From Gammaproteobacteria bacterium (GTDB lineage Bacteria; Pseudomonadota; Gammaproteobacteria; GCA-001735895), in contig JACNJF010000194.1 in NCBI GenBank assembly GCA_014382695.1, positions 861-64,860 of the forward strand: DNA of 64,000 nt, written 5' to 3'. Position numbers and translations under genes: made by a program. The notes beneath the pieces are model-generated. The model was not told where the DNA came from. It saw only the letters and a list, made by a program, of their open reading frames with translations, and did no database searches. Below are positions 25,192 to 64,000 of this stretch, in pieces (position 1 is the stretch's first letter; the number at the start of each line of letters is the position of its first letter).

Positions 25192-25209
25192 CCCTTGAAT
25201 ATTAAAACC

Positions 25210-37082: not shown

Positions 37083-38125
37083 TGCGTCCTGCGTTTTTGT
37101 CCAAAGTTCTGGAAGAAGAACTACTGGGAACGCTTAAAGGTCATCACACACCGGTGATGGTATGGGGCCCGCCAGGGGTTGGCAAATCACAGATCGTGCT
37201 GCAGATTGGGCAAACCCATAAGCTGCCGGTGATCGATATCCGGCTATCTCAGATGGAACCGAGCGATTTGCGCGGTATCCCGTTTAAACAGGGCAGTAAG
37301 GTTGAATGGGCGGTACCTTCGATGTTGCCCGATGCTAAAACCCATGGCAGTTCAGGCATTCTGTTTCTGGATGAAATAAATTCGGCAGCCCCTTCGGTGT
37401 CAGCAGCGGCCTATCAGCTTATCCTGGATCGCCGACTGGGGAACTATGAAGTACCGCAGGGCTGGGCCATCTTTGCTGCCGGCAACCGACAGGGCGATCG
37501 TGGAGTGACCTATGCGATGCCTGCACCACTGGCGAATCGCTTCTCACATTATGAAATCGATCTGCATCTGGATGACTGGGTGGCCTGGGCCTATAAAAAC
37601 GGTATCGATGAACGCATCATCGGTTTTTTACGTTTTCGCCCGGAGTTACTGTTTGATTTTGATCCGGCGCACAACCCGGTCGCTTTTCCATCACCGCGTT
37701 CCTGGGAGTTTGCTCATCGCGCATTACAAAAATTTATCGATTACCCGAATCTGTTGCTGGGTTCGTTACAGGCCTGTGTTGGTCCTGCGGCAGGAATCGA
37801 ATGTCATGCGTTTATTGAAAGTCTGGATCAAATGCCGGATCTGGATAAGATTATCAATGGTGAAGACATCAAGGCACCGGATGAAATCGACCTGCAATAT
37901 GCAGTGGCTTCTGCACTGGTAGGCCGTGCGATTCGTGCTCAGTCGAGCGCGCAGTCGGCGACTATCTATGGCAATATCCTTAACTATGCGGGTCGTTTTC
38001 CGCAGCGTGAAATGGGTGTAATGCTGGTATCGGATATGCATCGGGCGATTGGTAATGATCTGTTTGAACTGACCGAATTTGCCAGCTGGGCCGATTCTAT
38101 TGCCGATCTGATTCTGTACGACTGA
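37082..38125 (+). CDS. MoxR-like AAA+ ATPase (AAA_5 family)
   Basis: Walker A GPPGVGKS and Walker B ILFLDEIN. The sensor and arginine region (AAGNRQGDRG) is typical of the CbbQ/NorQ/MoxR clade. Confidence 0.9.
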   Translation: MRPAFLSKVLEEELLGTLKGHHTPVMVWGPPGVGKSQIVLQIGQTHKLPVIDIRLSQMEPSDLRGIPFKQGSKVEWAVPSMLPDAKTHGSSGILFLDEINSAAPSVSAAAYQLILDRRLGNYEVPQGWAIFAAGNRQGDRGVTYAMPAPLANRFSHYEIDLHLDDWVAWAYKNGIDERIIGFLRFRPELLFDFDPAHNPVAFPSPRSWEFAHRALQKFIDYPNLLLGSLQACVGPAAGIECHAFIESLDQMPDLDKIINGEDIKAPDEIDLQYAVASALVGRAIRAQSSAQSATIYGNILNYAGRFPQREMGVMLVSDMHRAIGNDLFELTEFASWADSIADLILYD

Positions 38126-38134
38126 TGACGGTTC

Positions 38135-39505
38135 GTGGATAGTTCACTCGAAGCAATTGAAAACAAATTGAGTGCAGCGCGCACTCGATTGATCCTGGAT
38201 AAACCATTTTTGGGGGCGCTGGTGTTGCGTCTGCCGTTGCAGGCGGCCGATCCGAGCTGGTGTGCAACCACCGGTACCGATGCCCGAAAGTTCTATTACA
38301 ATCCGGCCTATATTCAGGAGCTGCGCGCCGATGAAACCCAGTTTGTGCTGGCACACGAAGCCCTGCATTGCGCGCTGTCGCATTTTGCACGGCGCGGTCA
38401 TCGGGTTAAACACCGCTGGGATATCGCCTGTGATTATGCGATTAATCCGCTGCTGTTAGATGAAGGGCTGAAGCCGCCACCCGGCTCTCTGATGCTGCGT
38501 GAGTACCGTGGGATGACGGCGGAGGAAATCTATCCGATGATTCAGGATAACGATATGTCCGAGTCGCTGGATCAGCATCTGTACGATAAACAGGAGCAAA
38601 CCGAAGGCGGGCAGGATAAACAGCAAAATCCACTCGATCAGAAGGATTCAAAAAGTCAGTCTGGTGGTGAAGGTCAGGTGCAACGGCAGGATCAGTCGAA
38701 TAAACCTGCACAGGGCAATCAGCCTGACGAACCGGCGGATAGCGAAAAAAATCCGCAGCAGGATGAAAGCGCGGGCCTGCCGAGACAGAGCAACGATCAG
38801 TTACCCGGAAAAGCCAGCGGTGCCGCCAGTAAAGACCTGCAAAGCAGTGCACCGCAGCCGTTAACCGAATCAGAAAAATCAGATCTGCATGTGCAGTGGC
38901 AGCAGCGACTGGCTGGTTCGGCACAACAGGCGCAGCAGGCCGGTAAGCTGGGTGAAGGCATCGCGCGCATGATCGATTTTTTTCTGCAGCCGACCTTACC
39001 CTGGCGTGTATTACTGGCACGCCATATGAACAGTATTTCGCGCGACGATTACAGCTACACGCGGCCTTCCAGCCGGCGTGGCGATCCGGCGATCTATCCC
39101 AGCCTGCGTAGCCCGCAGATGAACGTGGTGGTCGCTGTCGATGTCAGTGGTTCGATCGACAAGGATGAGCTGGATGAGTTTGTGGCGGAAGTCGATTCAC
39201 TCAAATCCCAGGTTCGGGCGCGTGTCACTTTTCTGACCTGTGATTCAAAGATAACCGGTGATAGTCCTCAGATTTTTGAAGCCTGGGAGTATTGCCGCCT
39301 GCCGGAACGTATTATGGGTGGAGGCAGCACCGATTTTAACCCGGTGTTTGAGTGGGTCGAACGGCATGATGTGAAGCCGGATCTGCTGGTTTACTTTACC
39401 GACGCGGATGGACGATTCCCTCGCTGTCAGGCGCCTTATCCGGTGATCTGGCTGGTGAAAGGCCGTAAGGCCGTTCCCTGGGGCCAGAGAATTCAATTAA
39501 ATTAA
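38135..39505 (+). CDS. HExxH putative metallopeptidase domain (DUF2201_N-like) plus Q/E-rich linker plus C-terminal VWA domain protein
   Basis: GTG start. HEALHCALSH motif at the N-terminus, a low-complexity acidic and Gln-rich linker of about 120 aa, and a VWA domain with MIDAS-like VAVDVSGSID. Confidence 0.85.
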   Translation: MDSSLEAIENKLSAARTRLILDKPFLGALVLRLPLQAADPSWCATTGTDARKFYYNPAYIQELRADETQFVLAHEALHCALSHFARRGHRVKHRWDIACDYAINPLLLDEGLKPPPGSLMLREYRGMTAEEIYPMIQDNDMSESLDQHLYDKQEQTEGGQDKQQNPLDQKDSKSQSGGEGQVQRQDQSNKPAQGNQPDEPADSEKNPQQDESAGLPRQSNDQLPGKASGAASKDLQSSAPQPLTESEKSDLHVQWQQRLAGSAQQAQQAGKLGEGIARMIDFFLQPTLPWRVLLARHMNSISRDDYSYTRPSSRRGDPAIYPSLRSPQMNVVVAVDVSGSIDKDELDEFVAEVDSLKSQVRARVTFLTCDSKITGDSPQIFEAWEYCRLPERIMGGGSTDFNPVFEWVERHDVKPDLLVYFTDADGRFPRCQAPYPVIWLVKGRKAVPWGQRIQLN

Positions 39506-39513
39506 GCGGTCTT

Positions 39514-40632
39514 ATGCAATTATCCAATGAAGATAACCTGCGCCTGAATGTGTTGCTGGCGCAGGACCTGAAAGCGGTTCGCATCGATGAATCGAAAATG
39601 ATCGTGTATGCCTTATCCAGTCGCGGGGATGCCAAAATCCAGCTCAATCCGACTGGCAAGGATGAAAAATATATCCGCCTGGTAAAAGAGCTGCTGTCGA
39701 ACAAGATTATGGGTTCTCCTGGCGGTTATCCGGTGTATATCAAGCGCTGGACACGCATGGGGCAGGAACGTCAGCAGGAAAGCCTGGCGCAATTGCTGTT
39801 ACTGGGTGAGCCGGAAGCGGTGGTGGCGGTGGTGCATGCTCCAACCCTGAGTACCGATATCGCACGCCATGCGTGGTGGGCATTCCCGTCCTCTGAAAAT
39901 GCGCGCCGGTTACTGGAAAAAAAATCCATCGTGGATTCCGATCTGGCGCGAGAGCTGGTCGAGTTTTTACTCGAGTTCCTGCCGTTTGAGATAGAGCACA
40001 GAGACATGATCGATTCGGTTCGATTATGCCTGCAAAATGACCTGTTAACCGCTGCTGAAATCGACGATCTGTGGAAACGGGCGCGGCGTAAACAGAGTCT
40101 GTATGTCGGGTTTTTACACAGCCAGCCGGATGCTCTGCCGGATCAGGCCGGTGCACATCCGCTGTATAAACCGTTGCAGCAGTCTTTGCAGCCACTGGTC
40201 GAGCAGGGCAATGTGTACGCGATCCAGCTATTGCGCTACCTGTCGGAGCCGGGGCAGGGCTTTCTCAGAACCATCATCCGGGTGCTTGAAAAAGCCGCCA
40301 GCCAGGATACGATCGTTTCACTGTTTCAGGCGCTGTCAAACTATAACCGCCTGTTACCTCTGGCATCGGTGAAGCAGCGCGATATCAAGAATGCGGAGCA
40401 GCTGGTCACGGTATGGATAAGTGGCAAGCAGGATGAGCAACTGGTGAGCTGTCTTGAGGCCTGTGCACAATATAGCGATCAGATTCGAGCCATGCTGGTC
40501 ATATCTCAGCTGGATGAAGTGACGCTGTTTCCGATTTTTGGCCTGACCGATGCACTGGGCACGGTGATGCGCAAAAAACTTGAGCCGGTCACCGGCCCTT
40601 TATTGCAACATATCCGGCAGCTGTTACATTAG
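39514..40632 (+). CDS. hypothetical all-alpha protein (372 aa), fourth gene of the MoxR-VWA operon
   Basis: Separated by 8 nt from the VWA gene. No recognisable motif; predicted helical repeats. Confidence 0.7.
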   Translation: MQLSNEDNLRLNVLLAQDLKAVRIDESKMIVYALSSRGDAKIQLNPTGKDEKYIRLVKELLSNKIMGSPGGYPVYIKRWTRMGQERQQESLAQLLLLGEPEAVVAVVHAPTLSTDIARHAWWAFPSSENARRLLEKKSIVDSDLARELVEFLLEFLPFEIEHRDMIDSVRLCLQNDLLTAAEIDDLWKRARRKQSLYVGFLHSQPDALPDQAGAHPLYKPLQQSLQPLVEQGNVYAIQLLRYLSEPGQGFLRTIIRVLEKAASQDTIVSLFQALSNYNRLLPLASVKQRDIKNAEQLVTVWISGKQDEQLVSCLEACAQYSDQIRAMLVISQLDEVTLFPIFGLTDALGTVMRKKLEPVTGPLLQHIRQLLH

Positions 40633-40731
40633 GCGAAGTTCGTGGAGTGCAACTATCGGTTGCGCGATGTTTTCTATATAATGATTTCCTTATATTAAAT
40701 TTAAGGCCTCCAACTGGAGCGGGTGTATGCG

Positions 40732-42132
40732 ATGAAGTACCTTCCGATATTTTATGAAATCACCGATAAGCCCTGTGTAGTGATCGGAGGCGGGGGGATT
40801 GCCGCACGTAAAGCCGACCTGTTACATCAGGCGGGTGCCAGAGTCAGTGTGATTTCCCCCGAGCTGGGCGATGAAATGTCGCGCTTTCAACAACAGGGTA
40901 AGATTAGCTGGCAGCAACGTAATTTTGAGGCAGGTGATCTGACCGATTATTTTCTGGTGATCGCCGCAACCAGTGACAGGCGGGTCAATGAACAGGCTGC
41001 GGCTGAAGCACTGGTGCTGAAGATTCCCTGTAATGTGGTGGATAACCCAGAGCTATGCAGTTTCATCATGCCTTCGATTATCAACCGGGATCCAGTACAG
41101 ATTGCGGTATCTACCGGTGGCGCATCACCGGTGCTAGCACGTCTGATTCGGACCAATCTGGAAAGCTGTACGCCATCGGCCTATGGCAAGCTGGCGAAGC
41201 TGGTCGAAAAGTATCGTGACCGGGTCAAAAGTACCTTCCCACGCGTGGTCGAGCGTCGTAAATTCTGGGAGTCTATTCTGGAAGGGCCGGTGGCTGAACA
41301 TATCTTTGCCGGTCGTAACGACGATGCCCGACAGTTGATTGAACAACTGATCGACAAGGCCGATTCCAACCCGTCCTATAAAGGTGAAGTGTTTCTGGTA
41401 GGTGCCGGTCCGGGAGACCCCGACCTGCTCACCTTTCGCGCCTTACGCCTGATGCAAAAGGCCGATGTCATCGTCTACGATCGACTGGTTTCGCAACCGA
41501 TCATGGATCTGGTGCGGCGTGACGCGGAGCGCATCTACGCCGGCAAGGAACGCTCCCATCATGCGATACCCCAGGAAAACATCAATCAGTTGCTGGTGCG
41601 GTTGGCCAAAGAAGGCAAACGTGTACTACGCCTGAAAGGTGGCGATAACTTCATTTTCGGACGCGGTGGTGAAGAAATATCTGAATTGATCGATGAAGAT
41701 ATCCCGTTTCAGGTCGTGCCCGGTATAACTGCCGCTTCCGGTTGTACAACCTACGCAGGTATTCCGTTAACCCACCGTGATTATGCGCAGGCCTGTATCT
41801 TTGTGACCGGCCACCTGAAGGATGGCTCCAGTGATCTGAACTGGGATATGTTGTCGCATGCGAATCAAACGGTGGTTTTTTACATGGGGCTGGTGAATGT
41901 TCAGTCGATCTGCGATTCACTCAAACAACATGGCCGAGCCGCCTCTACACCGGCTGCGTTGATCGAAAAAGGTACAACGCCGGAACAACGGGTTTTTATC
42001 GGTGATCTGGATACCTTACCGGGGCTGGTGAACCAGAATAATGTCAAGGCCCCGACCCTGATTGTGGTCGGTGAAGTGGTGGAGTTGCATAAGAAACTGC
42101 ACTGGTTCAAGCCGGGCGAAGAGATTAAATAG
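40732..42132 (+). CDS. cysG: siroheme synthase
   Basis: Three functional regions: precorrin-2 dehydrogenase, sirohydrochlorin ferrochelatase, and uroporphyrinogen-III C-methyltransferase. MKYLPIF...VVIGGGGIAARKADLL matches the E. coli CysG N-terminus, and the SUMT motifs VGAGPGDPDLLT are present. Confidence 0.95.
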   Translation: MKYLPIFYEITDKPCVVIGGGGIAARKADLLHQAGARVSVISPELGDEMSRFQQQGKISWQQRNFEAGDLTDYFLVIAATSDRRVNEQAAAEALVLKIPCNVVDNPELCSFIMPSIINRDPVQIAVSTGGASPVLARLIRTNLESCTPSAYGKLAKLVEKYRDRVKSTFPRVVERRKFWESILEGPVAEHIFAGRNDDARQLIEQLIDKADSNPSYKGEVFLVGAGPGDPDLLTFRALRLMQKADVIVYDRLVSQPIMDLVRRDAERIYAGKERSHHAIPQENINQLLVRLAKEGKRVLRLKGGDNFIFGRGGEEISELIDEDIPFQVVPGITAASGCTTYAGIPLTHRDYAQACIFVTGHLKDGSSDLNWDMLSHANQTVVFYMGLVNVQSICDSLKQHGRAASTPAALIEKGTTPEQRVFIGDLDTLPGLVNQNNVKAPTLIVVGEVVELHKKLHWFKPGEEIK

Positions 42133-42257
42133 CCCCGTAGAGTGTTCCTGTAGGACTATGATGGCAATCATGCTTCTTCCTGAGGTGTATTACCTGGCGT
42201 TGCCAATTACATTGAAAACTAGTTTGTACCATCTCAGTGCTGATTTCCGAGTATCCG

Positions 42258-42812
42258 ATGCTTAAAAGCTATTTTAAAAGGATGTGTGGTCAGGGCGATA
42301 AATGCCGTGAAACTTATACCCCTGTCTGGTTACTGTGGTCAGTTGTGGGGGGATCGCTTGCCATACTGATCATCTCCTTTACCCATCAGTGGATACCGAT
42401 TTCGCATGCCAGCAGTCTGTTTTTGATCGGCTCTTTTGGTGCCTCTTCGGTTCTCATTTTCGGCACACCGAATGTACCCTATGCCCAGCCCAGGAACCTG
42501 CTCGGAGGGCATCTGATCTCTGCCCTGATCGGGGTGACGATCGCTCAATATGTGATTTTACCGATTGAATTTCAGGCGGCGCTGGTGGTTTCGCTGGCGA
42601 TACTGTTTATGCTGCTCACCAATACGGTGCATCCACCCGGCGGGGCAACCGGGCTGATCGCCGTAATCGGACATGATGGAGTGCATGAAATGGGTTACCA
42701 CTTCGTGTTGCAACCAGTACTGTCAGGCCTGTTGATCATGCTGGTGATTGCGTTGCTGTTCAATAATCTGAGTTCTGATTGTGAACGTCATTATCCCCGG
42801 CACTGGTGGTAG
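42258..42812 (+). CDS. HPP-family membrane protein
   Basis: Four TM helices and the signature HPPGGAT. Confidence 0.8.
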   Translation: MLKSYFKRMCGQGDKCRETYTPVWLLWSVVGGSLAILIISFTHQWIPISHASSLFLIGSFGASSVLIFGTPNVPYAQPRNLLGGHLISALIGVTIAQYVILPIEFQAALVVSLAILFMLLTNTVHPPGGATGLIAVIGHDGVHEMGYHFVLQPVLSGLLIMLVIALLFNNLSSDCERHYPRHWW

Positions 42813-42822
42813 GACCGCGTAT

Positions 42823-42855
42823 TAATTGCTAAGTATCCGGACATATTAGCAATTA
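42823..42855. promoter_or_regulatory. perfect 10-bp inverted repeat (taattgctaa-N13-ttagcaatta) upstream of sulP
   Basis: Seen directly in the sequence. It lies about 50 bp upstream of the SulP start, with a -10-like TAGAAT at 42873. Confidence 0.45.
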
Positions 42856-42906
42856 CTTATATATTCGGGTAGAATCCGCGCCTTTTAATCTGTGCAAGGC
42901 GAATCT

Positions 42907-44463
42907 ATGTTCCAACTCACCTGTCCTGGTAAACAATGTGTAAAAAATGATGTGTTATCCGGTCTGACCGTCGCGTTGGCGCTGGTTCCGGAAGCAGTCG
43001 CTTTTGCCTTTGTCGCGGGTGTCGAACCTCTGGTAGGCCTGTACGGCGCCTTTATGATGGGAATCATCACCGCTTTTATCGGCGGTCGTCCCGGTATGAT
43101 TTCTGGAGCCACCGGTGCGATGGCGGTGGTGATGGTGTCGCTGGTTGCTCAGCATGGGGTCGAGTATCTGTTTGCCGCGATTATCGTCACCGGTTTGATC
43201 CAGATGAGTGCCGGTGTGCTGCGCCTGGGCAAGTTTATCCGTCTGGTGCCTTTCCCGGTAATGCTGGGTTTCGTGAATGGTCTCGCCATCGTTATTTTTC
43301 TGGCCCAGTTACAGCAGTTCAAGGTGATTTCAGCCGATGGTGGGCTGGAGTGGATGAGCGGACAGTCATTGTTGATTATGCTGGGTCTGATTGCGCTGAC
43401 CATGGCGATCATCCACTTTTTACCTCGTTTTACGGTTGCTGTTCCAGCTTCTTTGGCTGCCATTATTACAGTGACTCTGCTGGTCATCGGACTGGACCTG
43501 GATAGCCGCTCGGTGGTTGATGTATTGCGTGATATGACGGGCGATATGCAGGCCACGATTGCGGGTGGTCTACCTTCGTTTCATCTACCCGTTGTGCCGT
43601 TTAACTGGGAAACACTGCGGATCATTCTGCCTTACAGCATTATTCTGGCTGGTGTTGGCCTGATTGAGTCGCTGCTGACGCTGAATCTGGTGGATGATCT
43701 GACCGAAACCCGTGGGCGTGGTAATCAGGAGTGTGTCGGGCAGGGAATCGGTAATACCGTCAATGGCCTGTTTGGCGGAATGGGCGGCTGTGCCATGATC
43801 GGACAGTCCATGATCAATATCAATTCGGGAGGCAAGGGCCGCCTGTCAGGCATCAGCGCGGCGCTGTTTCTGCTGGGATTTATTCTGTTCGCTTCCGGCC
43901 TGATCGAAATCATCCCGGTCGCAGCGCTGGTCGGGGTGATGTTCATGGTGGTGCTTGGCACCTTTGAATGGGCCACCTTTCGCATGATCGGTAAAGTGCC
44001 GTTGGCGGATATTCTGATTACCATTCTGGTTGCGGCTGTCACCGTTATATCGGATCTGGCGATCGCCGTTATCGTCGGCGTCATCGTGTCGGCACTGGTA
44101 TTTGCCTGGGAGCATGCCAAGCACATGAACGCGAAGTCTTTTATCGATGAAAATGGCAGTAAAATCTATGAGCTAAACGGGCCGCTGTTCTTTGGTTCGG
44201 TGCATGCCTTTCATGAACTGTTTAATCCACGCGAAGACCCGGATGATGTAATCATCGATTTTTATAATTCACGGGTTGCCGATCATTCCGGCATCGAAGC
44301 CATCGATAGTCTGGCTGAGCGTTATCAGCGTAACGGTAAAACACTGCATCTCAAGCATCTGAGCGAAGAATGCAAGCTGCTGCTACATACGGCCGGAAAC
44401 CTGGTAGAAGTGAATGTAATGGAAGATCCGGTATACCATGTGGCGGATGATCTGCTGGATTAG
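42907..44463 (+). CDS. SulP-family sulfate/anion transporter with C-terminal STAS domain
   Basis: Signature region [18 protein letters not shown], multiple TM helices, and a STAS domain at the C-terminus. Confidence 0.9.
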
Positions 44464-48527: not shown

Positions 48528-50525
48528 ATGCCTATCCGCAGGCAGGCCAGGGTATTAAAGATTGTATTCGTGCTGTTATTTGCTATCCCGTTGCTGGGAT
48601 GCTTTAACTCTGACTCTGAGTCCCCGCCAACGTTTGAGTATCGCGCCGCACTCAAGCCTTTTTCCAGCTGTGATGCACTCGCCACCTATCTACAGGATAC
48701 GGCCGAGCAGCAGAATCGTCTGAGTCAGTATTATTATGCGCTGCCGGGCATCAGTAATGCCGTGCAGGATAATGTCATCGGTATTCCGGGTGGAAATGTC
48801 GCGCTAAGTGCGGATGCTATTGCGCCGGCCATAGAAACTACCCGTACAATCAGCGAGTTTACCCAGACCAATAATCAGGTGAGTGGGGTCGATGAAGCCG
48901 ACTTCATCAAAACCGATGGCGACTATAGCTATATCGTGAGCGGTGGCTTTCTGGTCGTAGTGGATAACTGGCCAGCCGATCAAAGCTCAATACTGGCTCG
49001 GATAGCGGTGAAAGGCTTGTCTTCCAATCTGTTTGTGTATCAGGATACGGTGTGGGTCGTGAGTGATTTAATGAGCACCGACCTGTCCGCCAGTCAGATG
49101 GCCTTTGCACCCCGGGTCAATCAGTTAACCCTGATTTCAATGTTCGATATCACCGATCGCAGCAATCCGCTGTTGCTGCGTGAAACAACACTGGAAGGTT
49201 ACTATGTCGATGCCAGACGTATTGATAACCGGGTGTATCTGGTCACTTCCGCTTACTTTGATCTGTATCCGTTACTTTCTGATAATGCCAGTCCTGCGAT
49301 TGATACGTTGCTACCGAAGCTGTCCGACCGAGTGTATAACGCAGGAATCAGTAGCGTCAGTGAACAGCTGATCAGCCCCTGTGAACAGATCTATCAACCG
49401 GGTACCGCAAATGGCACCGGTACCATCACCCTGTCGACGTTTGATTTACTGACACCTCGGTCTGAGATCAAACGCCAGACCATCATCAGTAATTCAGGAA
49501 CCATCTATGCCAGTCGTGAGCATCTTTATCTGGCCACGGTAGAGGATAACTTCTGGACCTGGTTGCCCGTGCTGGAAGGCGATGAAGTTCCCAGTCCTGG
49601 TACTACCTTGCATAAATTTAGCCTGTTGCAGGAACCGGTGTATCTGGCCAGTGGACGAGTCGACGGTTATCTGTTGAATCAGTTTGCGCTGGATGAACAT
49701 AACGATTTATTGCGCATAACTACTACCAGTTTTGCGTGGTGGAACAACCAGCCGCCGCAGAACAGGCTGTATATCCTTGAGCAGCAGGGTGAGCGACTGG
49801 TGCAACGCAGTCAGCTAGATGGGCTGGGTAAGCCCGGAGAGCGCATCTATGCCACACGCTTTTTTGGTGATCAGGGTTTTGTCGTGACTTTCCAGCAGAT
49901 TGACCCGTTGTATACGCTGGATCTGAGTGATCCGGATAATCCGCAAGTTGCTGGCGAACTGGAGGTTCCTGGATTTTCCACCTATCTGCATCCTCTGGAG
50001 GATGGTCTGCTGCTGGCGATTGGACGCAACCAGAGCAATAACGCCACCGATGTCAGTCTGTTTGATACCACGGATTTTTCTCAACCGGCACTGCTGCATC
50101 GGATCTCTATCGGCAAGGACAGTTATTCGGAAGCTGAATACAATCATAAGGCCTTTACCTGGTATCCACGTGAACAGTTGTTGGCGCTGCCGGTCACGCG
50201 TTGGTCGGGTGATTTGGTGCGGGATGGTTACTCGGGCTACCGACTGTTCAACGGTCTGCAATTATATCGGGCCGACCGAGTAAATGGTTTCGCTGATGTT
50301 GGGCTGGTCGATCATAGTTCGCTGTATCAAAATAGTACGGGCCAGTTCTGGTATCAGCCGGAAAATATCCGTAGAAGTTTTTTTGTGGCTGATGACGCAA
50401 ATCAGAGTTACCTGTACTCGGTCAGCAGTCGTGGCATCAAGATCAATGCACTCGGCGATCTGGCAACGGATCTGGCGGTACTAGAATTACCCGTGTATGA
50501 CAGGCAGAATGTTCTTTTTTATTAA
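48528..50525 (+). CDS. lipoprotein with C-terminal beta-propeller domain (Beta_propel/PF09826-like)
   Basis: Lipobox LLGC. The 665-aa product has repeated beta-strand-rich segments. Family assignment is from memory of the family architecture. Confidence 0.6.
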   Translation: MPIRRQARVLKIVFVLLFAIPLLGCFNSDSESPPTFEYRAALKPFSSCDALATYLQDTAEQQNRLSQYYYALPGISNAVQDNVIGIPGGNVALSADAIAPAIETTRTISEFTQTNNQVSGVDEADFIKTDGDYSYIVSGGFLVVVDNWPADQSSILARIAVKGLSSNLFVYQDTVWVVSDLMSTDLSASQMAFAPRVNQLTLISMFDITDRSNPLLLRETTLEGYYVDARRIDNRVYLVTSAYFDLYPLLSDNASPAIDTLLPKLSDRVYNAGISSVSEQLISPCEQIYQPGTANGTGTITLSTFDLLTPRSEIKRQTIISNSGTIYASREHLYLATVEDNFWTWLPVLEGDEVPSPGTTLHKFSLLQEPVYLASGRVDGYLLNQFALDEHNDLLRITTTSFAWWNNQPPQNRLYILEQQGERLVQRSQLDGLGKPGERIYATRFFGDQGFVVTFQQIDPLYTLDLSDPDNPQVAGELEVPGFSTYLHPLEDGLLLAIGRNQSNNATDVSLFDTTDFSQPALLHRISIGKDSYSEAEYNHKAFTWYPREQLLALPVTRWSGDLVRDGYSGYRLFNGLQLYRADRVNGFADVGLVDHSSLYQNSTGQFWYQPENIRRSFFVADDANQSYLYSVSSRGIKINALGDLATDLAVLELPVYDRQNVLFY

Positions 50526-50943: not shown

Positions 50944-52416
50944 ATGTTCTCTTTTTCCTCCCAGTTCTCAGATGGTGAAAACAGTTACCGGCTGATTGCC
51001 GCACTGTTTCTGCGCCTGCTCGCCATCATTTATTTCATGGCCTTCTTTTCTCTCAGCTTTCAGATTACCGGGCTGGTGGGAGAGCAGGGCATACTGCCAC
51101 TCAGCCCCTGGCTGGATAGCCTGCTGAGTGAAATGGGCGGCTCGGCTTTTGTCTACTTTCCGATGTTGTTCTGGTTTGAGCAGAGCGATTTTTTCCTGCA
51201 GGCAGTAGCCTGGTCGGGTTGTGTTGTTTCAATTTCGCTATTGCTTAATATCTGGCCCAGACTGAGCCTGATCCTGCTGTTCATTTTCTATCTGTCGCTG
51301 GTTAAGGCAGGGCAGACCTTTATGAACTTTCAGTGGGATGGCTTACTGCTGGAGGCTGGATTTCTGGCAATTTTTCTACGTCCGGATTCCAGAATCCTGA
51401 TCCTGTTATTCCGCTGGTTACTGTTTCGCTTACGCTTCATGTCCGGTATTTCAAAACTGGTGATGGGCGATCCGTCCTGGCTGGGCATGACGGCGCTGAT
51501 CTATTACTTTGAAACCCAGCCGTTACCGCATGTAGGGGCCTGGTATTTTGATAACCTGCCGCAGATACTACTGATCGCCGCTACCGTTCTGGTGCTGATC
51601 ATTGAGATCATAGTGCCTTTTATGATGTTTTTACCCCGGCGTTATCGTCTGATAGCCGCCTGGGCCACGCTCGCGCTGCAAGTGCTGATTATGCTCAGCA
51701 GTAATCACAACTGGTTTAACTTTCTGACCATCGCGTTATGCCTTTTTCTGTTCGATGATAAAGCCGTGCGACGCATCGTACCGGGTGGGCTGGAACGCTG
51801 GTTGACCATGAGCTGGGCGCAACGCCTGCAAAACCCGCGCGCTCGACGTTCGGTGGCGGCGAGTTATCTGCTGGCGGGAGTGGTTACGCTGGGCGGTATC
51901 CTGAGCATCCATAAATTGGTCACCAACAGGAGTCTGGGCACTGTTGCCGATACCCTGCAGGATATCCTGCAGCAATGGCATATCGTGAATACCTATCATG
52001 TTTTCCCAACCATGACGACGCGTCAGATCGAACTTAAAATTGAAGGCTCTATCGATGGGATTAACTGGAAAGAGTATGAGTTTATCCATCGCCCAAATGC
52101 GCTATCGAAAGCACCGACGATCGTTTTCCCGCATCATCCGCGACTCGACTGGATGATGTGGTTTGTGCCGTTTCATCCACGCTTTTTACCCTGGTTTGAT
52201 GCTTTCCTGCAAACCCTGCTGGAAAACTCAGCGCAGGTAACGGCATTGCTAAAGGATAATCCGTTCAAGGACCAGGCTCCCCGCTATCTGCGTGTGAATG
52301 CCTGGCACTATGAGTTTACCAGTCCCGCCGAGCGTGAGCAGACTGGCAACTGGTGGAAACGCAGTTATCTGGGACCCTTTTACCCGCTACCCGGTAAATA
52401 CAGGATCGCGCCCTGA
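50944..52416 (+). CDS. lipase maturation factor (LMF1)/HTTM-like polytopic membrane protein
   Basis: 490-aa product with an N-terminal YRLIAALFLRLLAIIYFMAFFS hydrophobic core and many TM helices. Resembles bacterial LMF-family proteins. Confidence 0.55.
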   Translation: MFSFSSQFSDGENSYRLIAALFLRLLAIIYFMAFFSLSFQITGLVGEQGILPLSPWLDSLLSEMGGSAFVYFPMLFWFEQSDFFLQAVAWSGCVVSISLLLNIWPRLSLILLFIFYLSLVKAGQTFMNFQWDGLLLEAGFLAIFLRPDSRILILLFRWLLFRLRFMSGISKLVMGDPSWLGMTALIYYFETQPLPHVGAWYFDNLPQILLIAATVLVLIIEIIVPFMMFLPRRYRLIAAWATLALQVLIMLSSNHNWFNFLTIALCLFLFDDKAVRRIVPGGLERWLTMSWAQRLQNPRARRSVAASYLLAGVVTLGGILSIHKLVTNRSLGTVADTLQDILQQWHIVNTYHVFPTMTTRQIELKIEGSIDGINWKEYEFIHRPNALSKAPTIVFPHHPRLDWMMWFVPFHPRFLPWFDAFLQTLLENSAQVTALLKDNPFKDQAPRYLRVNAWHYEFTSPAEREQTGNWWKRSYLGPFYPLPGKYRIAP

Positions 52417-56785: not shown

Positions 56786-58369
56786 CTAGTTTTTAATCAG
56801 CTTCAGAACATCACTGTTTGAGATTAAGGCTATTGGCTGAAAGTTGATGTAACGCGGCATCTTGTTGAGCGTTTCGGTAACCTGAGCCTGGTCATCGAAC
56901 TGACCGCCGTAGATCAGGTTGTATTGATCTTTATCATCGATGAAGTAAGCCAGCTCCTGGGTAAAGTAGTGATTGTAACGTTGCGCTATTTCAAACAGTT
57001 CCTGCTTTTTGGCAACCGTGGCAACCTTGATGGAATACTTGTCAGGATTCAGTTTGACCAGCCATTGTGACCCATGAATGGTATTCTTCGAGCCAAAGTT
57101 ATACAGTGGTGCGAGATATTGAACGCGCCCATCCAGGCTTTCGACTTCATCGTTCATTGCTTTCATATCCTGCTGGATCAGCTGGGTTTTTTCCTGCAAA
57201 TCCTGTTGAACCTGATTCAGGTTTTTCTGTAACTCGATGATTTCAGAGTAAAATACCTGCGATGCCATCTGCTCATCCTGCACTCGACTCTCCAGCTGTG
57301 TGACCTGTTCGTTGATGACTTCATTATGCTGAACGGTAACCGCCTGTTGCGTATCACGTTGATATTCTGCGTAAAAAAAGATGGCGATCACGGCCAGCAA
57401 TAACAGTAAACTCGATGCCGCCAGTGCTTTGAAATGCTTTCTCTCCAGACTTGCCAGTGCCAGCAGGGTACGCGTCAGGGAACCGGTTTTGTCACTCAGG
57501 GTATCGATCTGTCCCTGTTGTTCGATATTCTGTTGCTGCAGACGCGCGGTATGTAATTCGAGTGCCTCCACATCTCCAGACAGCTTGCTGGTCAGTATAT
57601 CCAGGGTGTCGGTGGAGTCTTTCAGTGTTTCACTGTCTTCGATCAGTTTGGCAGAAACCGCTTCCAGAGAAGCGGCACGCTTTTCCAGTGCTGCATCGAC
57701 GCTTTGCATCAGCAGCATTTTTGCTTTCTGGCTATCAATCGCTTTATCAGCGGACTTTATCTTGCTGTCCAGCGTATCATCACGCTGTTGAGTCGACTGA
57801 GCGAGTTGCTCTAGTTCAGCGATAATTTTTACTTCCAGTGTAGTAATCGCCTTGCTGTTATCTTTGATGCTTTTGTTCAATTTGGTGCTGATTGTCGATA
57901 CTTTTTTGGATAAAGTTTCGGCACGCGCAATCAGATCCACATGCTGCTGTCTAAATTCGACATTGACTTCAGTCTGGCTTTGAATAGCTTCATTCAGCGC
58001 CTTGCTGGATGATTTTTCGAATGATTTGATCGCGCTGTTGACCGCTTTCAAATCGCTGCTCATCTTATTTGACTGCAGGTTTAATTCCTTAAAGGATGTT
58101 TCGATGATTCCTAGCTGCTTATAAGTGTCAGCTACTTTTTCAGACAGTCCTGCTTCCGATGTTGACAGGCGTTCGACATCGGTATTGATCTGTTTGTTGC
58201 TGCTATTGATTTTTTTATTCAGTTTGGCAATGGTAGCTTCCAGAGCCGACATCTGTTTATTAATTTCCATCACCTGTTTTTCCTTGCCGTTTTCCTGCAA
58301 TGGAACCAGATTACCTTTTGCCACAGGGGCATCGCTGACTTTATCCAGCTTTTTATTTTCTTGAGCCAT
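56786..58369 (-). CDS. bitopic coiled-coil protein with C-terminal SPOR domain (DamX-like)
   Basis: Long heptad-rich N-terminal region, one TM helix (LLLLLAVIAIFFYA), and a C-terminal region about 90 aa long with the SPOR-like pattern YSIKVATV...YNLIYGGQF. Confidence 0.6.
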   Translation of the reverse strand: MAQENKKLDKVSDAPVAKGNLVPLQENGKEKQVMEINKQMSALEATIAKLNKKINSSNKQINTDVERLSTSEAGLSEKVADTYKQLGIIETSFKELNLQSNKMSSDLKAVNSAIKSFEKSSSKALNEAIQSQTEVNVEFRQQHVDLIARAETLSKKVSTISTKLNKSIKDNSKAITTLEVKIIAELEQLAQSTQQRDDTLDSKIKSADKAIDSQKAKMLLMQSVDAALEKRAASLEAVSAKLIEDSETLKDSTDTLDILTSKLSGDVEALELHTARLQQQNIEQQGQIDTLSDKTGSLTRTLLALASLERKHFKALAASSLLLLLAVIAIFFYAEYQRDTQQAVTVQHNEVINEQVTQLESRVQDEQMASQVFYSEIIELQKNLNQVQQDLQEKTQLIQQDMKAMNDEVESLDGRVQYLAPLYNFGSKNTIHGSQWLVKLNPDKYSIKVATVAKKQELFEIAQRYNHYFTQELAYFIDDKDQYNLIYGGQFDDQAQVTETLNKMPRYINFQPIALISNSDVLKLIKN

Positions 58370-58535
58370 GGTTATTAACCCGTTAGTTAAATTGAATTCG
58401 ATAATTAGAATATTAGCATAATCTAATATATAATTAAAGGTGAATCACTACAGCCAGCAAGCGTTGTAGGCTACAATCGCGGATCAAATTATTCTGGATC
58501 ATTAAATTATGCACTTTAGTTTTTCAAGTTTTGGA

Positions 58536-58922
58536 ATGCGTTTTCTTTTTTCAACCATCCTCGTTTTTGCGACCTTCAATCCAGAGGGTTACTCCTATTT
58601 CCACTGGGTAAAATCCGTCTTTCCTTCGGTGACCATTGAGCAGGCTTTTGTGGGTGTTTTACTGATTATTGGCTGGGTTATCTACCTGCGCGCCACGTTC
58701 AGATCACTCGGCGTGATTGGATTGATGCTGGCCTTCGCCTTCTTTGGTCTGCTGCTGTTCATGTTGATCAAGTGGGGCTGGTTGTCACTGGATGCCACCA
58801 GAATGGTAAGCTATGTCATCGAGATTCTGATAGCGGTGGTTCTGGCGGTTGGTATGTCCTGGTCGCATATAAGACGCCGCCTGTCCGGTCAAATGGATAT
58901 GGATGATGTCGATCAGGATTAA
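58536..58922 (+). CDS. hypothetical small membrane protein (4 TM)
   Basis: ORF with 4 hydrophobic helices and an acidic C-terminus. The track start is at 58509. Confidence 0.45.
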   Translation: MRFLFSTILVFATFNPEGYSYFHWVKSVFPSVTIEQAFVGVLLIIGWVIYLRATFRSLGVIGLMLAFAFFGLLLFMLIKWGWLSLDATRMVSYVIEILIAVVLAVGMSWSHIRRRLSGQMDMDDVDQD

Positions 58923-58994: not shown

Positions 58995-60968
58995 GTGTTT
59001 TGTAAAAAATGGAAGTTAACGACTAAACTGTACCCAAATCTACCGTTAACGGCTCCACTTTTAGCGTTGCTGATTTTTTTGTTATCGGCACCGGTTTTAG
59101 CCTCTATTTCGCCTGTTGAAAAGCAACGGCTTCTTTTTCAGCAGGCGGAAAATGCGCTGTCCGAAAATGATCTGAAACAGTTTGATGATTTGCTTGCAAA
59201 GTTGCATGACTATCCAGTGGTGGCCTACCTGGAATACGATGCCTTAAGTCTCCAGCTTAGCCACACAAACGCTGACGACGTGAAGCTTTTTCTTAACAAA
59301 CATGACGATTATCCTTTTCGCTACGCCTTACTCAGCAAATGGCTGGATTTACTGGCGTCGCGTAAAGACTGGGCTGGTTATCTGGATTTTTATGACGGCC
59401 GAAGTGCGACACGCTACAAATGTCTGGCCTTAACCGCCAGACTGGAGGTCGGTCAGATCGCTGATATCAATCAGGATATCGAAAAGCTGTGGTTGACCGG
59501 ATATTCACAGCCTGACGAGTGTGATATTCCATTCCAGCATTTTCTGCAAACCGGCGATGATGTATACGCTAGCGTGTGGACCCGAATCGAAAAAGCGTTT
59601 GAGGCGAGGCGACCTACGCTATCAACGTATCTGGCCAGAAATCTTTCGGCTGATGACCGTAAGCTGGTCGATGAATGGTATCAGGCACATCGGCATCCGC
59701 AACAGCGCCTGAGTGTACTGGCTGATTTCCCGGATACATTGATCAATCGAAAGATTATTGTGCATGCTATTCAGCGTTTGGCCCGTAAAAACAGCCTGCA
59801 AGCCAAACAGTACTGGGATCAGACTCGTGATTCTTTCCAGTTTTCAGCGCAGCAGGTCGCGCAAATCAATAAGCGCATCGCGCTTTCAGCCGCTTATCAG
59901 CATAAGGCTGAGTCAAAAGAGTTACTGGAGCAACTTCCCGTTGAACAAAAATCAGACAATGCGCATCTGTGGTTAGCCCGGATTTATTTGCGGGATGAAG
60001 ACTGGATCGGACTGATTAAAACGATCGAAGTCATGCCTGAGCACCTGCAGAAAGAGTCCGAGTGGGTTTACTGGCAGGCACGTGCGTATGACAAGGTTGG
60101 ACATCATGTGAAAGCGACCGAAACCTACCGCGGCCTGGCACAGAAAGGCAGCTACTACGGATTTCTGGCGGCTGATCGGATTGCGGTTAGCTATCAGATC
60201 AATCAGCAGCAGGCGGCAGATGAGGCTTCCTTTGATGAAAACTTGCTGCTGGCAAAAAGTGATCATCTGCTGCGCGCACGTGAGTTATTTTTCCTGAATC
60301 GATTACTCGATGCCCGGCGTGAGTGGTTTCAGGGAATCCGTAAGCTCAGTCAGCTGGAAATTCGTCAGGCGGCGAGTATGGCATCTAACTGGAAGTGGCA
60401 TGATAACGCGATCAAGACCGTTGCGAAAACCAGTCATCGAACTGATTACGACCTGCGCTTCCCCATGCCTTACCGCCAACTGATGGTCGAAAACGTGGAG
60501 CAAAATGGGCTGGATTTGTCCGTCATCTATGGCGTAATGCGCAGGGAAAGTCTGTTCGATCCGCTGGCAAAATCCAAAGTGGGCGCGCTTGGCCTTATGC
60601 AGCTGATGCCTTCTACGGCGCGCCATGTGGCCAAATCACTAGGCCTTAAAAAACCGGTTCAGTCTGATATTCTGAATATCGACAATAATATCCGCCTCGG
60701 CACCAGTTATTTTAAATCGGTACTGAAACGTTTCGATGATAATGTTTCTCTGGCGACAGCAGCCTATAATGCCGGCCCTGGAAACGTAAAAAAATGGTTG
60801 CCCGAAAAAGAGTCATTACCGGCCGATTTATGGGTTGAAACAGTGCCTTTTAAAGAGACCAGAAATTATATTCAGGCCGTGTTAGCGTATGCAACAATTT
60901 TTGATAAGCATCTGGGTAAAGAGGTCAATATCTCTAGCAGAATGGCGGATGTAAAGCCTGAGTATTGA
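58995..60968 (+). CDS. slt: soluble lytic murein transglycosylase
   Basis: Signal peptide, a superhelical N-terminal region, and a C-terminal lysozyme-like domain with MRRESLFDP and GLMQLMPSTA. Confidence 0.9.
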   Translation: MFCKKWKLTTKLYPNLPLTAPLLALLIFLLSAPVLASISPVEKQRLLFQQAENALSENDLKQFDDLLAKLHDYPVVAYLEYDALSLQLSHTNADDVKLFLNKHDDYPFRYALLSKWLDLLASRKDWAGYLDFYDGRSATRYKCLALTARLEVGQIADINQDIEKLWLTGYSQPDECDIPFQHFLQTGDDVYASVWTRIEKAFEARRPTLSTYLARNLSADDRKLVDEWYQAHRHPQQRLSVLADFPDTLINRKIIVHAIQRLARKNSLQAKQYWDQTRDSFQFSAQQVAQINKRIALSAAYQHKAESKELLEQLPVEQKSDNAHLWLARIYLRDEDWIGLIKTIEVMPEHLQKESEWVYWQARAYDKVGHHVKATETYRGLAQKGSYYGFLAADRIAVSYQINQQQAADEASFDENLLLAKSDHLLRARELFFLNRLLDARREWFQGIRKLSQLEIRQAASMASNWKWHDNAIKTVAKTSHRTDYDLRFPMPYRQLMVENVEQNGLDLSVIYGVMRRESLFDPLAKSKVGALGLMQLMPSTARHVAKSLGLKKPVQSDILNIDNNIRLGTSYFKSVLKRFDDNVSLATAAYNAGPGNVKKWLPEKESLPADLWVETVPFKETRNYIQAVLAYATIFDKHLGKEVNISSRMADVKPEY

Positions 60969-61039
60969 GCTGAAAATGGTTTTACACAAAAACGAATTTA
61001 GCGGTTAACTGCATCCATACTTTTAATGAGGGGCTGAAC

Positions 61040-61933
61040 ATGAAAAAGGGAATTGGCATACTATCCATTATCATACTTTTAACGCTACTATCCGCCTGTG
61101 CGGTACATCAGACCCGCACCAAAAGTAGTGTTGTTGATTACCTTTATCCCAAAACAGATACCATCGTGCAGCCATCTGTTCCAGTATTAAAGATTCCGGT
61201 TAGTGTCGGTATTGCGTTTGTTCCTGAGCAGGGTGTGCGAACAAATCAACCTGGACTATGGCCAGGACTGGGAAATTCAGGGATAACGGAATCGCAAAAA
61301 AATGAACTACTTGAAAAGGTCGCTGAAAATTTCCGTAAATATGAATTTGTCGGGAGTATCGAGGTCATTCCATCCGCCTATCTGACCGCTGAAGGCAGTT
61401 TCTCCAATCTGGAACAGATTAAAACGATGTACAACATCGATGTGATTGCGCTGGTTTCTTATGATCAGGTTCAGTTTACCGATGAAGGTCTGCTTTCCCT
61501 GACTTACTGGACGGTGGTAGGTGCTTATGTTGTAAATGGCGAAAAAAATGATACCAGCACTATGTTAGACACCGTCGTGATGGATATTAACAGTCGTAAA
61601 ATGCTGTTTAGAGCTCCGGGAACCAGTGATATAAAAGGCTCTTCCACGCTGATAAACTTATCTGAAAAACTAAGGATTGACCGCTTAAGTGGCTTCGCCG
61701 AAGCGACGGATAAGATGATCGTCAATCTGGATGAACAACTGGCGAGCTTTAAAGAAAAAATTAAAGCTAAACCCGAACAGGTGAAAATTACCTACAGTCC
61801 CGGTTACTCGGGATCTGGCGGTGGCGGCGGTGGAATTCTTAGTATGACCGATATCAGCGCTTTACTGTTATTGCTGTTGCTATCTTCCCACAGGAAAATG
61901 AATTTCAGCCGTAATCTGTCCAGGCTCGGATAA
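61040..61933 (+). CDS. lipoprotein with C-terminal Gly-run plus hydrophobic helix plus basic tail (rhombotail/GlyGly-CTERM-like)
   Basis: Lipobox LLSAC. The C-terminus is SGSGGGGGGILSMTDISALLLLLLLSSHRK. The local region is AT-rich. Confidence 0.5.
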   Translation: MKKGIGILSIIILLTLLSACAVHQTRTKSSVVDYLYPKTDTIVQPSVPVLKIPVSVGIAFVPEQGVRTNQPGLWPGLGNSGITESQKNELLEKVAENFRKYEFVGSIEVIPSAYLTAEGSFSNLEQIKTMYNIDVIALVSYDQVQFTDEGLLSLTYWTVVGAYVVNGEKNDTSTMLDTVVMDINSRKMLFRAPGTSDIKGSSTLINLSEKLRIDRLSGFAEATDKMIVNLDEQLASFKEKIKAKPEQVKITYSPGYSGSGGGGGGILSMTDISALLLLLLLSSHRKMNFSRNLSRLG

Positions 61934-62272
61934 ATGAACAGGGAGAATCTGCTGTTATATAACTCGTTCGCTTTTATGGTGGCCCTGAGCAATTTCAGGG
62001 CTATTGCTTTAACTGTAGTTCTACTCTTCCCGTTGATGGGGTCAGGATTAGCGCTTATTGCGCAGTTTCCGCTACAGATATTTCTTTTTATTCTGTTATC
62101 GCAAATAAGCCTGCTGACTTATTTGCTGATCACAGCAAATAGCAACAAACCTCATACCGTCAATCCAGAAATCCGATCTACCATTGGTAAGGGCTTTGGT
62201 TCTGCCTTTTTAGGTTCTGGCATGGCATCTACATTCACTTCACAAAATAAGGTAATTCATCATGGAAAATAA
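61934..62272 (+). CDS. hypothetical small membrane protein
   Basis: ORF starts immediately after the upstream stop. Two or three hydrophobic segments. Low GC. Confidence 0.3.
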
Positions 62273-62858
62273 AAGTACTAATGTTGTCTGGCATAACGCT
62301 ACCGTGACACGTACACGTCGTGAACAGAAAAATAACCACAAGGGAGCCTTATTCTGGTTCACCGGATTTTCCGGTTCTGGAAAATCAACTCTGGCGCATG
62401 CGGTGGAAGAACGTCTATATCTGAATGGTTATAATACTTACGTACTGGATGGAGACAATGTCAGGCATGGTTTATGTGCGGATCTGGCTTTTTCGGATAA
62501 CGACAGGAAAGAAAATATCCGCCGTATTAGCCATATGAGTAATCTGTTTGTGCAGGCAGGGGTGATCGTGCTCACTGCTTTCATTTCGCCTTTTAGAGTT
62601 GATCGTGACAATGCCCGAAAAATAGCGGGTAAAGACTTCCATGAAATTTTCTGTAATTGCAGCCTCGATGTATGTGAGACCAGAGATGTAAAAGGCCTCT
62701 ATAAAAAAGCCAGAGCCGGACAGATCCCCTTTTTTACCGGCATAGATTCACCTTACGAAGCACCGGAACATGCGGAACTGGTGACTAACACCGACGCCAA
62801 TCTTGAGCAGTCTATCGATCAGGTTTATGACTACATCATGTCGAACGTGAAAGTATGA
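62262..62858 (+). CDS. cysC: adenylyl-sulfate (APS) kinase
   Basis: P-loop GFSGSGKST and overall CysC length and similarity. Confidence 0.92.
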
Positions 62859-62887
62859 GCTGTTAATTTTACGGTTTCTTTATTCTC

Positions 62888-64000
62888 ATGGGATCTCCTG
62901 CCTGGGGGCGCACTGAAAAGCCTCATTCAAATCGCAAAGACTGGGATAACATCAAACAGATGTTCCCGTTCATCTGGACCTATCGTGGGCGTGTATTATT
63001 GGCGCTGGCCAGTCTTATTATTTCAAAACTGGCGATGGTCGGCGTTCCCATTACGCTTAAATATATTGTTGATTCGCTGGATGGGAGCACCGGTCAGACC
63101 GTCGCTTTACCGATAGCACTCCTATTAGCCTATGGCATTTTACGATTTGTTAATTCAGGCTTTAACGAGTTAAGGGATGTTATTTTTGCGCGCGTGCGCT
63201 ATCACGCAATGCGTGAATTATCGGTTGCTGCCTTACAGCATCTGCATGATCTCTCCTTGCGCTTTCATCTTGAGCGTAATACCGGTGCTATTTCGCGTGA
63301 TCTGGAACGGGGGGCACAGAGTTTCAGTTCGATTTTAAACTATCTGGTGTTCAGTATTGTGCCAACCATTGCTGAATTCCTGCTGGTTGCGAGTATTCTG
63401 TTCGGTCAATACGATGTGCAGTTTGCTGTCACAGTATTCACTACGGTACTGTTTTATGTGCTATTCACTTTTCTGGTTACCGAATGGCGTATGCACCACC
63501 GGCATGAAATGAACGCTCTCGATTCCAGTGCCAATGGTAAGGCTATGGACAGTCTGATGAATTATGAAACAGTAAAGTACTTCAATAACGAACGGCATGA
63601 AATCGATCGTTATAAAAAAACCATGACAGGCTGGGAGGATGCGGCCGTTAAAAGCCAGACTACTATGTCAACCCTGAATTTTGGACAGGGTGCGATTATT
63701 GCGGTCGGTGTGACCATCGTTATGTTGTATGCGGCTCATGGTGTGGAGCAGGGGCAATTGTCGATCGGTGATCTAGTACTGATTAATACGATGATGCTAC
63801 AACTGTTCTTACCACTGGGTTTTCTTGGTATCGTTTATCGTTCATTAAAGTATGCTATGGCCGATATGGATATGGTGGTGAAGCTATTGAAAAAGCCTCT
63901 CGAAATTACCGATAGTCCGGCGGCTACTGAGCTTATTATCGATTCTGCCACCGTAGAGTTTGATCATGCCTGCTTTTCCTATAATGACGATCGTCAAATA
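62888..64000 (+). CDS. ABC transporter permease/ATPase, ATM1/HMT1-type exporter, N-terminal transmembrane domain; 3' end outside the window
   Basis: I translated this manually; it is not in the track because no stop falls within the window. Six-TM ABC-exporter transmembrane domain with no stop for more than 370 codons. The ATM1-like N-terminal region includes FPFIWTYRGRVLLALASL. Confidence 0.8.
   Translation, partial: MGSPAWGRTEKPHSNRKDWDNIKQMFPFIWTYRGRVLLALASLIISKLAMVGVPITLKYIVDSLDGSTGQTVALPIALLLAYGILRFVNSGFNELRDVIFARVRYHAMRELSVAALQHLHDLSLRFHLERNTGAISRDLERGAQSFSSILNYLVFSIVPTIAEFLLVASILFGQYDVQFAVTVFTTVLFYVLFTFLVTEWRMHHRHEMNALDSSANGKAMDSLMNYETVKYFNNERHEIDRYKKTMTGWEDAAVKSQTTMSTLNFGQGAIIAVGVTIVMLYAAHGVEQGQLSIGDLVLINTMMLQLFLPLGFLGIVYRSLKYAMADMDMVVKLLKKPLEITDSPAATELIIDSATVEFDHACFSYNDDRQI

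Follow-up and report, generated by a model that had tools for sequence, protein, structure and literature searches.

Introduction

The closest described counterparts of the C-terminal sorting signal treated here are the GlyGly-CTERM signals of rhombosortase substrates, among them VesB, VesA, VesC, Xds and VC1485 of Vibrio cholerae. VesB is cut after Gly-Gly, receives a glycerophosphoethanolamine modification and is displayed on the cell surface in a manner that depends on the type II secretion system (PMC6219818), and GlyGly-CTERM motifs act as interchangeable tags for targeting by rhombosortase (PMC13393428). In the canonical signal 0-5 residues follow the transmembrane (TM) helix, and a rhombosortase gene unlinked to its targets is usual in genomes with several of them (PMC3237569). 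Curators have also described full-length families that end in a variant of this signal, and TIGR04179, the "rhombotarget lipoprotein" family, is one of them (PMC5300114). Here we describe a gene of this family and the open reading frame (ORF) of 112 amino acids (aa) directly behind it, called ORF112 below, in a stretch of 64,000 nucleotides (nt) of gammaproteobacterial DNA (contig JACNJF010000194.1, positions 861 to 64,860), which was analysed as a whole and is referred to as the window. We consider it very likely that the gene encodes a TIGR04179 lipoprotein processed at both ends and that ORF112 is a relic of an exporter gene.

Results and Discussion

The lipoprotein gene and its family

The lipoprotein ORF, as read from the sequence, starts with ATG at 61040 and stops with TAA at 61931-61933 on the + strand, and encodes 297 aa (Table 1). 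The TIGR04179 model of NCBIfam, a whole-protein hidden Markov model with a curated cutoff of 150 bits, matched the protein with 328 bits (E = 3.6e-98). Residues 17-286 are aligned to positions 1-258 of the 259 in the profile, so that the match takes in the Gly motif, the helix and the two basic residues behind it. An earlier reading made from the sequence only had proposed a dual-anchor, rhombotail-like lipoprotein and a search with the rhombotail lipoprotein model, and this search supports the proposal, with an alignment that reaches into the tail as far as residue 286. The curated model has existed since the early 2010s. An identical protein at NCBI already carries the name "rhombotarget lipoprotein", and homologs are labelled "rhombotail lipoprotein" by JGI. 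The protein search returned 2924 homologs at E <= 0.001, the best-named of them from Candidatus Thiodiazotropha; no Pfam model matched the lipoprotein. In an alignment of 78 homologs the mean identity was about 60% and 66 columns were invariant. Judged by its profile match, the ORF at 61040-61933 is an ordinary member of the curated TIGR04179 family, and both the family and the annotation were already known.

The protein agrees with the family in the lipobox Cys, the core, the G-Y-S-G-G-G motif, the helix with an acidic residue and the basic tail, and it departs from it in no essential. Its peculiarities are an insertion of five Gly/Ser residues in the Gly run (a similar insertion of six is found in the nearest relative, P0002), Ser in place of Gly at column 268, and Asp in place of the commoner Glu in the helix. 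TIGR04212 belongs to the same curatorial category, being likewise a whole-protein model with a C-terminal variant GlyGly-CTERM (PMC5300114), but represents a different protein family and gave no match to the lipoprotein at E <= 1.

Signals at the two ends of the protein

The N-terminus reads MKKGIGILSIIILLTLLSAC followed by AVHQ, with the codon of Cys20 at 61097-61099 and Ala as residue +2. The lipobox LLSAC pointed out in the sequence-only reading is thus present, and its Cys20 is among the columns invariant in the 78 aligned homologs. Of 120 homologs, 109 have a lipobox, and Ala stands at +2 in 87 of these 109. According to the +2 rule of Escherichia coli, Ala at this position is no signal for retention in the inner membrane. 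The lolA gene is located in the window at 25195-25836.

At the other end the protein reads GYSGSGGGGGGILSMTDISALLLLLLLSSHRKMNFSRNLSRLG, in exact agreement with the earlier quotation of a Gly run, a hydrophobic helix and a basic cluster. Residues G255, Y256, G263 and G265 are each at least 90% conserved in the 78-homolog alignment. The family consensus G-Y-S-G-G-G, which in this protein is interrupted by the five-residue insertion, can be extended to a signature G-Y-S-(G/S insert)-G-G-G-[A/S]-[F/I/L]-G-x-x-[E/D], followed by about 11 hydrophobic residues and a variable basic tail. A hydropathy scan showed clearly hydrophobic segments only at residues 1-25 (signal peptide) and 263-283 (C-terminal helix). 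No TM segment was found between the two signals; the segment 45-62 is marginal (1.63) and is folded into beta strands in the structure model. A scan of the window for other GlyGly-CTERM-like C-termini gave only this lipoprotein and a false positive in an EamA permease.

The acidic residue of the helix, Asp271 (61850-61852), stands six positions after Gly-Gly-Gly and within the predicted membrane helix. Its column holds E or D in 66 of 78 homologs (E in 55, D in 11). A conserved charge inside the helix of a sorting signal is unusual, and we found no discussion of a residue of this type.

The tail comprises 12 residues after the first basic residue, or 11 after the basic pair R285-K286. In 120 homologs the number of residues after the first post-helix K/R had a median of 9 and a range of 1-35; the tail was longer than 5 residues in 83% and had 12 or more residues in 42%, with a mean net charge of +3.7. 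The 89%-identical relative has a tail of equal length (RKKSFRACKTRAG versus RKMNFSRNLSRLG). Since long basic tails are the norm within TIGR04179, the long tail is no anomaly. The 11 extra residues that the sequence-only reading had set apart are therefore real, though not exceptional, and on the family comparison the extension is a trait of the family or clade rather than an artefact of read-through or a defect.

The lipoprotein shares with the canonical substrates the Gly motif, the helix and the basic cluster, and in it, too, the stretch from the signal peptide to the tail is free of clearly hydrophobic segments (PMC3237569, PMC6219818). VesB differs in that it is described with an ordinary cleaved signal peptide and a propeptide, where the lipoprotein instead has an N-terminal lipobox.

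Association of the family with rhombosortase

As in canonical GlyGly-CTERM substrates, genes of the TIGR04179 family can adjoin a rhombosortase gene. A metagenome scan gave 80 more family loci. Among 86 loci, 61 of them with at least 600 nt of downstream sequence, a rhomboid-family gene adjoins the lipoprotein gene in 11, ten of which have it immediately 3' of the lipoprotein gene and in the same orientation. Six of the adjoining genes were tested, and all of these passed the rhombosortase model TIGR03902 (95-113 bits, cutoff 84). The link to rhombosortase is direct at the level of the family. The directly downstream, same-strand arrangement occurs in a subclade with 53-60% identity to the lipoprotein (pairs in Table 1), where the rhombosortase frame, taken from stop to stop, often overlaps the 3' end of the lipoprotein gene. 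Several of the members adjoining a rhombosortase terminate in a short canonical tail of the RRRA type.

Predicted fold of the mature core

An AlphaFold2 model calculated from the 78-sequence alignment had a mean predicted local distance difference test (pLDDT) score of 75.7 and a predicted template modelling score of 0.68. It consists of an alpha/beta core and a helix of 40 residues (204-243), after which a Gly linker, modelled as disordered, leads to a terminal helix (269-295). The mature 235-residue core models as the alpha/beta fold of the outer-membrane lipoproteins HpaA, CsgG, PelC and LptE. The likeness in the core goes with a sequence identity of at most about 12%, and neither Pfam nor the PDB gave a sequence match, a PDB search with the family profile returning only noise. 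Unlike the lipoprotein, the top structural matches have not been described with a C-terminal sorting signal. The predicted fold fits an envelope lipoprotein and gives no biochemical function; a role in ring formation or transport is not to be read from the fold alone.

Proposed processing at both ends and the alternative of a permanent anchor

In the processing that we propose, the precursor would leave the cytoplasm by Sec export, and processing of the lipobox by Lgt, LspA and Lnt would leave Cys20 as the acylated first residue. With Ala at +2 the protein would not be held in the inner membrane if the E. coli rule applies. The C-terminal helix would meanwhile be placed in the inner membrane with the basic tail on the cytoplasmic side, until rhombosortase cleaves at the Gly run. 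By analogy with VesB, the new C-terminal Gly would probably be joined to a lipid containing glycerophosphoethanolamine, and the protein, with lipid at both ends, would then be transferred to the outer membrane or the cell surface. The sorting signals can be read directly from the protein; its cleavage, lipidation and final location we infer by analogy.

Several observations weigh against this reading and against the view of ORF112 that goes with it. Four approaches (Pfam labels on gene calls, NCBIfam on ten ORFs of 190-230 aa, phmmer with GlpG on six-frame translations, and a profile of eight rhombosortases) detected no rhomboid or rhombosortase gene, either in the window or across about 82 kb of the source contig, whose full length is 100.7 kb. 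The general GlyGly-CTERM model TIGR03501, the other search proposed by the sequence-only reading, matches the canonical substrates and failed to match the lipoprotein, either as the whole protein (E <= 1) or as the isolated tail of 45 or 34 aa (E <= 10), where very weak matches may be concealed by the HMMER filters; this failure is to be expected, because TIGR04179 ends in a variant signal (PMC5300114). The tail, with its 11 residues past R285-K286, is outside the 0-5 residues of the canonical signal (PMC3237569). The structure model is of moderate confidence, as its pLDDT indicates, with fold matches of the low identity given above, and no experimental study of any TIGR04179 member, of its processing or otherwise, was found in the literature searched. 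For ORF112, Pfam LysE (PF01810) gave no match at E <= 10, and the connection with LysE is a transitive one, made by way of two truncated proteins.

If, in this long-tailed clade, the C-terminal helix were a permanent anchor that rhombosortase leaves uncut, the protein would be bitopic, attached by its N-terminal lipid and its inner-membrane helix with the basic tail in the cytoplasm, and could serve for example as a tether that crosses the envelope or runs along it. The lack of a rhombosortase gene in about 82 kb around the lipoprotein gene, the silent TIGR03501 model and the long tail would all suit such a protein, as would the shorter tails of the members that adjoin a rhombosortase, with a median of 7 residues after the first basic residue versus 9 in the rest. 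This last contrast is a weak trend only, the difference being small and the p value of 0.03 uncorrected and calculated with phylogeny ignored. Against a permanent anchor, the G-Y-S-G-G-G motif, the small residues that follow it and the acidic residue of the helix are equally conserved in long-tailed members and in those adjoining a rhombosortase, which argues that the processing signal is still under selection in the long-tailed members. The family model, which its curators tied to rhombosortase, aligns right through the helix (PMC5300114), and an unlinked rhombosortase is normal where there are several targets (PMC3237569). We therefore regard a permanent anchor as unlikely. Slightly less probable still is a version confined to the long-tailed clade without an adjoining rhombosortase, in which the signal would remain in place or be processed only partly, the N-terminal lipid and the inner-membrane helix would hold the protein so that its CsgG/PelC/LptE-like core is tethered between or along the membranes, and the tail would contact a cytoplasmic partner. 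In that case the conserved E/D in the helix would have a role other than recognition by the protease. Processing at both ends remains our preferred reading.

The 112-aa reading frame behind the lipoprotein gene

ORF112 begins at 61934, on the nucleotide after the lipoprotein stop codon, and by its end at 62272 overlaps the start of cysC (62262) by 11 nt. The sequence-only reading had presented it as a small hydrophobic membrane ORF; its position holds, but it is unlikely to be a membrane gene in its own right and is probably a relic of LysE type with no connection to the lipoprotein. The 328-nt spacer is fully open in one frame, which was the case in only 0.6% of shuffles, and for this reason the region was probably coding once. 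Frame 0 also has the best codon score of the six frames. Its codon-usage score of 0.078 is nevertheless lower than any obtained for pieces of 112 codons cut from real genes (103 pieces, minimum 0.218), and its GC (guanine plus cytosine) content is the lowest of any gene in the window.

An exhaustive HMMER search against 1.84 billion representatives gave, besides ORF112 itself, two small proteins (E = 6.6e-4 and 9.7e-4) and a short local match in a protein of 1809 aa. Both small proteins, which are the only full-length matches other than self, exceed the gathering score of Pfam LysE, aligning to its C-terminal half, and are LysE fragments. A local profile built from these two fragments together with RhtB and RhtC of E. 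coli gave ORF112 30.3 bits, compared with at most 11.5 bits for 3000 shuffles; RhtB and RhtC alone did not match it. Residues 13-104 align colinearly to positions 116-206 of the 206-column LysE/RhtB profile, that is, to 91 positions forming about the last 45% of these translocators. The first half, some 115 N-terminal residues, is absent, which leaves ORF112 below the size of about 200 aa with multiple TM segments that marks the family (PF01810) and makes it a fragment rather than a transporter. The LysE/RhtB motifs NPKA and PQF appear in it in the decayed forms NFRA and FPLM. In the 89%-identical relative, cysC follows the lipoprotein gene after a spacer of only 105 nt that aligns to both ends of the ORF112 region, about 225 nt being missing. 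The most likely reading of these comparisons is that ORF112 is what remains of the C-terminal part of a decaying LysE/RhtB-type exporter gene, that the sister lineage has lost still more of it, and that it has no relation to the lipoprotein.

The same reading frame could instead be a genuine gene for a small membrane protein whose translation is coupled to that of the lipoprotein through the TAA-ATG junction and which acts, for example, as its dedicated membrane partner. The ATG directly behind the stop codon, the open spacer and the good score of frame 0 would be in accordance with this, and gene callers predict ORF112 on all contigs of the population. However, ORF112 found only itself among 5.8 billion clustered proteins, no comparable ORF lies 3' of the gene in other family loci, and its Shine-Dalgarno sequence is weak; together with the deletion in the relative, the poor codon usage, the low GC and the alignment to only the second half of an exporter, this gives a real partner protein little probability compared with the exporter relic. 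Polymorphism does not help in this choice. Across seven contigs from different samples, 1261 nt contained one variable site, A to T at 61991 (Asn20Tyr in ORF112). The population carrying the locus is nearly clonal across samples, and because of this its single-nucleotide differences are uninformative about selection on ORF112.

Two other origins of ORF112 were tried and rejected. As a rhombosortase remnant it scored -1.9 bits on the profile of eight rhombosortases and matched no NCBIfam model, and as a repeat or mobile element it showed no repeats and occurs only once in the window. Rfam gave no match beyond noise in the interval that separates the lipoprotein gene from cysC, and no convincing terminator or promoter was seen on the + strand of this region.

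Base composition and gene neighbourhood

The GC content is 0.437 for the lipoprotein gene (8th percentile of spans of the same size) and 0.429 for the span of lipoprotein gene and ORF112 (4th percentile), against a window mean of 0.488. The sequence-only reading had described an AT-rich patch. The lower GC is confirmed, weakly, but it is not a discrete patch: a value of 0.439 extends over 60600-64000, through cysC (0.442) to the end of the window, and comparable patches occur about eight more times in the 64 kb. The low GC is a mild regional dip that is not centred on the lipoprotein gene.

The upstream neighbour, a gene of the Slt70 type, ends 71 nt 5' of the lipoprotein gene and matches the murein transglycosylase model PRK11619 of NCBIfam with 336.8 bits, below the cutoff of 536. 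The order slt, lipoprotein gene, cysC is kept in the 89%-identical relative only, and more distant homologs have unrelated neighbours. Apart from the adjoining rhombosortases the neighbourhood of the family is not conserved, and three recurrent clusters of neighbours had no NCBIfam match. That the lipoprotein gene and ORF112 form a small, horizontally acquired AT-rich islet is very improbable: the GC of the span and the varying neighbourhood of the family would agree with it, but the dip is neither local nor rare in the window, no flanking repeats, tRNA genes or tandem repeats were found, no integrase or transposase gene stands beside the pair (the nearest Phage_integrase genes seen belong to an unrelated locus, L016), and the gene order is common to the 89%-identical relative.

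Further upstream, a gene on the - strand at 56786-58369 encodes a protein of 527 aa with no Pfam match and weak SMC-like coiled-coil matches, in the stretch of lowest GC (0.365-0.43) of that part of the window. Beside it lies a DUF6524 gene (58509-58922, +). The 89%-identical relative shares this pair, with slt and then the lipoprotein gene behind it.

Table 1. Coordinates of the features described, in the window or, for the pairs, in the loci named
Feature	Coordinates	Strand	Basis
Soluble lytic murein transglycosylase (Slt70-like), upstream neighbour	58995..60968	+	Pfam SLT, SLT_L
Shine-Dalgarno-like GAGGGG	61028..61033	+	6 nt 5' of the lipoprotein ATG, read from sequence
Rhombotarget (rhombotail) lipoprotein gene, 297 aa, TIGR04179	61040..61933	+	NCBIfam profile match and identical named NCBI protein
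Predicted lipoprotein signal peptide (residues 1-19) with lipobox LSAC and Cys20, expected to be lipidated	61040..61099	+	sequence, conservation
Mature alpha/beta core with long helix (residues 204-243), predicted HpaA/CsgG/PelC/LptE-type fold	61100..61801	+	
Gly-rich GYSGSGGGGGG (residues 255-265), predicted rhombosortase recognition/cleavage region	61802..61834	+	conservation
C-terminal hydrophobic helix ILSMTDISALLLLLLLSS (residues 266-283) with acidic Asp271	61835..61888	+	hydropathy, model, conservation
Predicted basic cytoplasmic tail HRKMNFSRNLSRLG (residues 284-297) and TAA stop	61889..61933	+	sequence, family tail lengths
ORF112, hydrophobic, 112 aa, probable remnant of a LysE/RhtB-type exporter gene (C-terminal ~45%)	61934..62272	+	profile, codon usage, comparison with relative
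Adenylyl-sulfate kinase CysC, downstream neighbour	62262..62858	+	PRK03846 282 bits, TIGR00455 261 bits
Lipoprotein and rhombosortase pairs	L066:758-2262, L096:1584-3775, L087:12-1537, L097:76-1673		
Lipoprotein and rhombosortase pairs (continued)	L094:1794-3346, L095:1-2027, L099:5959-7436, L100:600-2188		

Other features of the window

Genes related to sulfur are scattered on the contig and encode a DsrC-family protein, CysG (siroheme synthase), an HPP-family protein, a SulP sulfate transporter and CysC (window positions about 1300-1620, 40723-44463 and 62262-62858; locus L011:1-138). A sulfite/nitrite reductase gene lies shortly before the start of the window. The organism may be a marine gammaproteobacterium that metabolises sulfur.

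A lone gene of the Cas6/Cmx6 type (504-1196, +; TIGR02807, 123 bits) stands between TauD-like and DsrC-like genes of the source contig; the window contains no further cas gene, and neither a CRISPR array nor tandem repeats. At 37082-40632 (+) an AAA ATPase (347 aa), a DUF2201 VWA-like protein (456 aa) and a protein of 372 aa without a family are encoded in an arrangement that resembles a MoxR/VWA-type cassette. A protein of 490 aa encoded at 50944-52416 (+) matches Pfam LMF1/LMF1_C, the lipase maturation factor, which is best known from eukaryotes. The genes 5' of it encode a Beta_propel protein of 665 aa (48528-50525, +) and a 130-aa ORF without a family.

Significance

As a discovery the lipoprotein gene carries little weight, the family having long been curated and this exact protein being already correctly named in public databases. 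The family is nevertheless large (at least 2924 homologs) and strongly conserved, and has yet to appear in an experimental study in the literature that we searched. In TIGR04179 one polypeptide unites two lipid-anchoring signals with a core that resembles the envelope lipoproteins CsgG, PelC and LptE. The members whose genes stand directly beside their own rhombosortase gene would be convenient test cases for lipidation at both ends.

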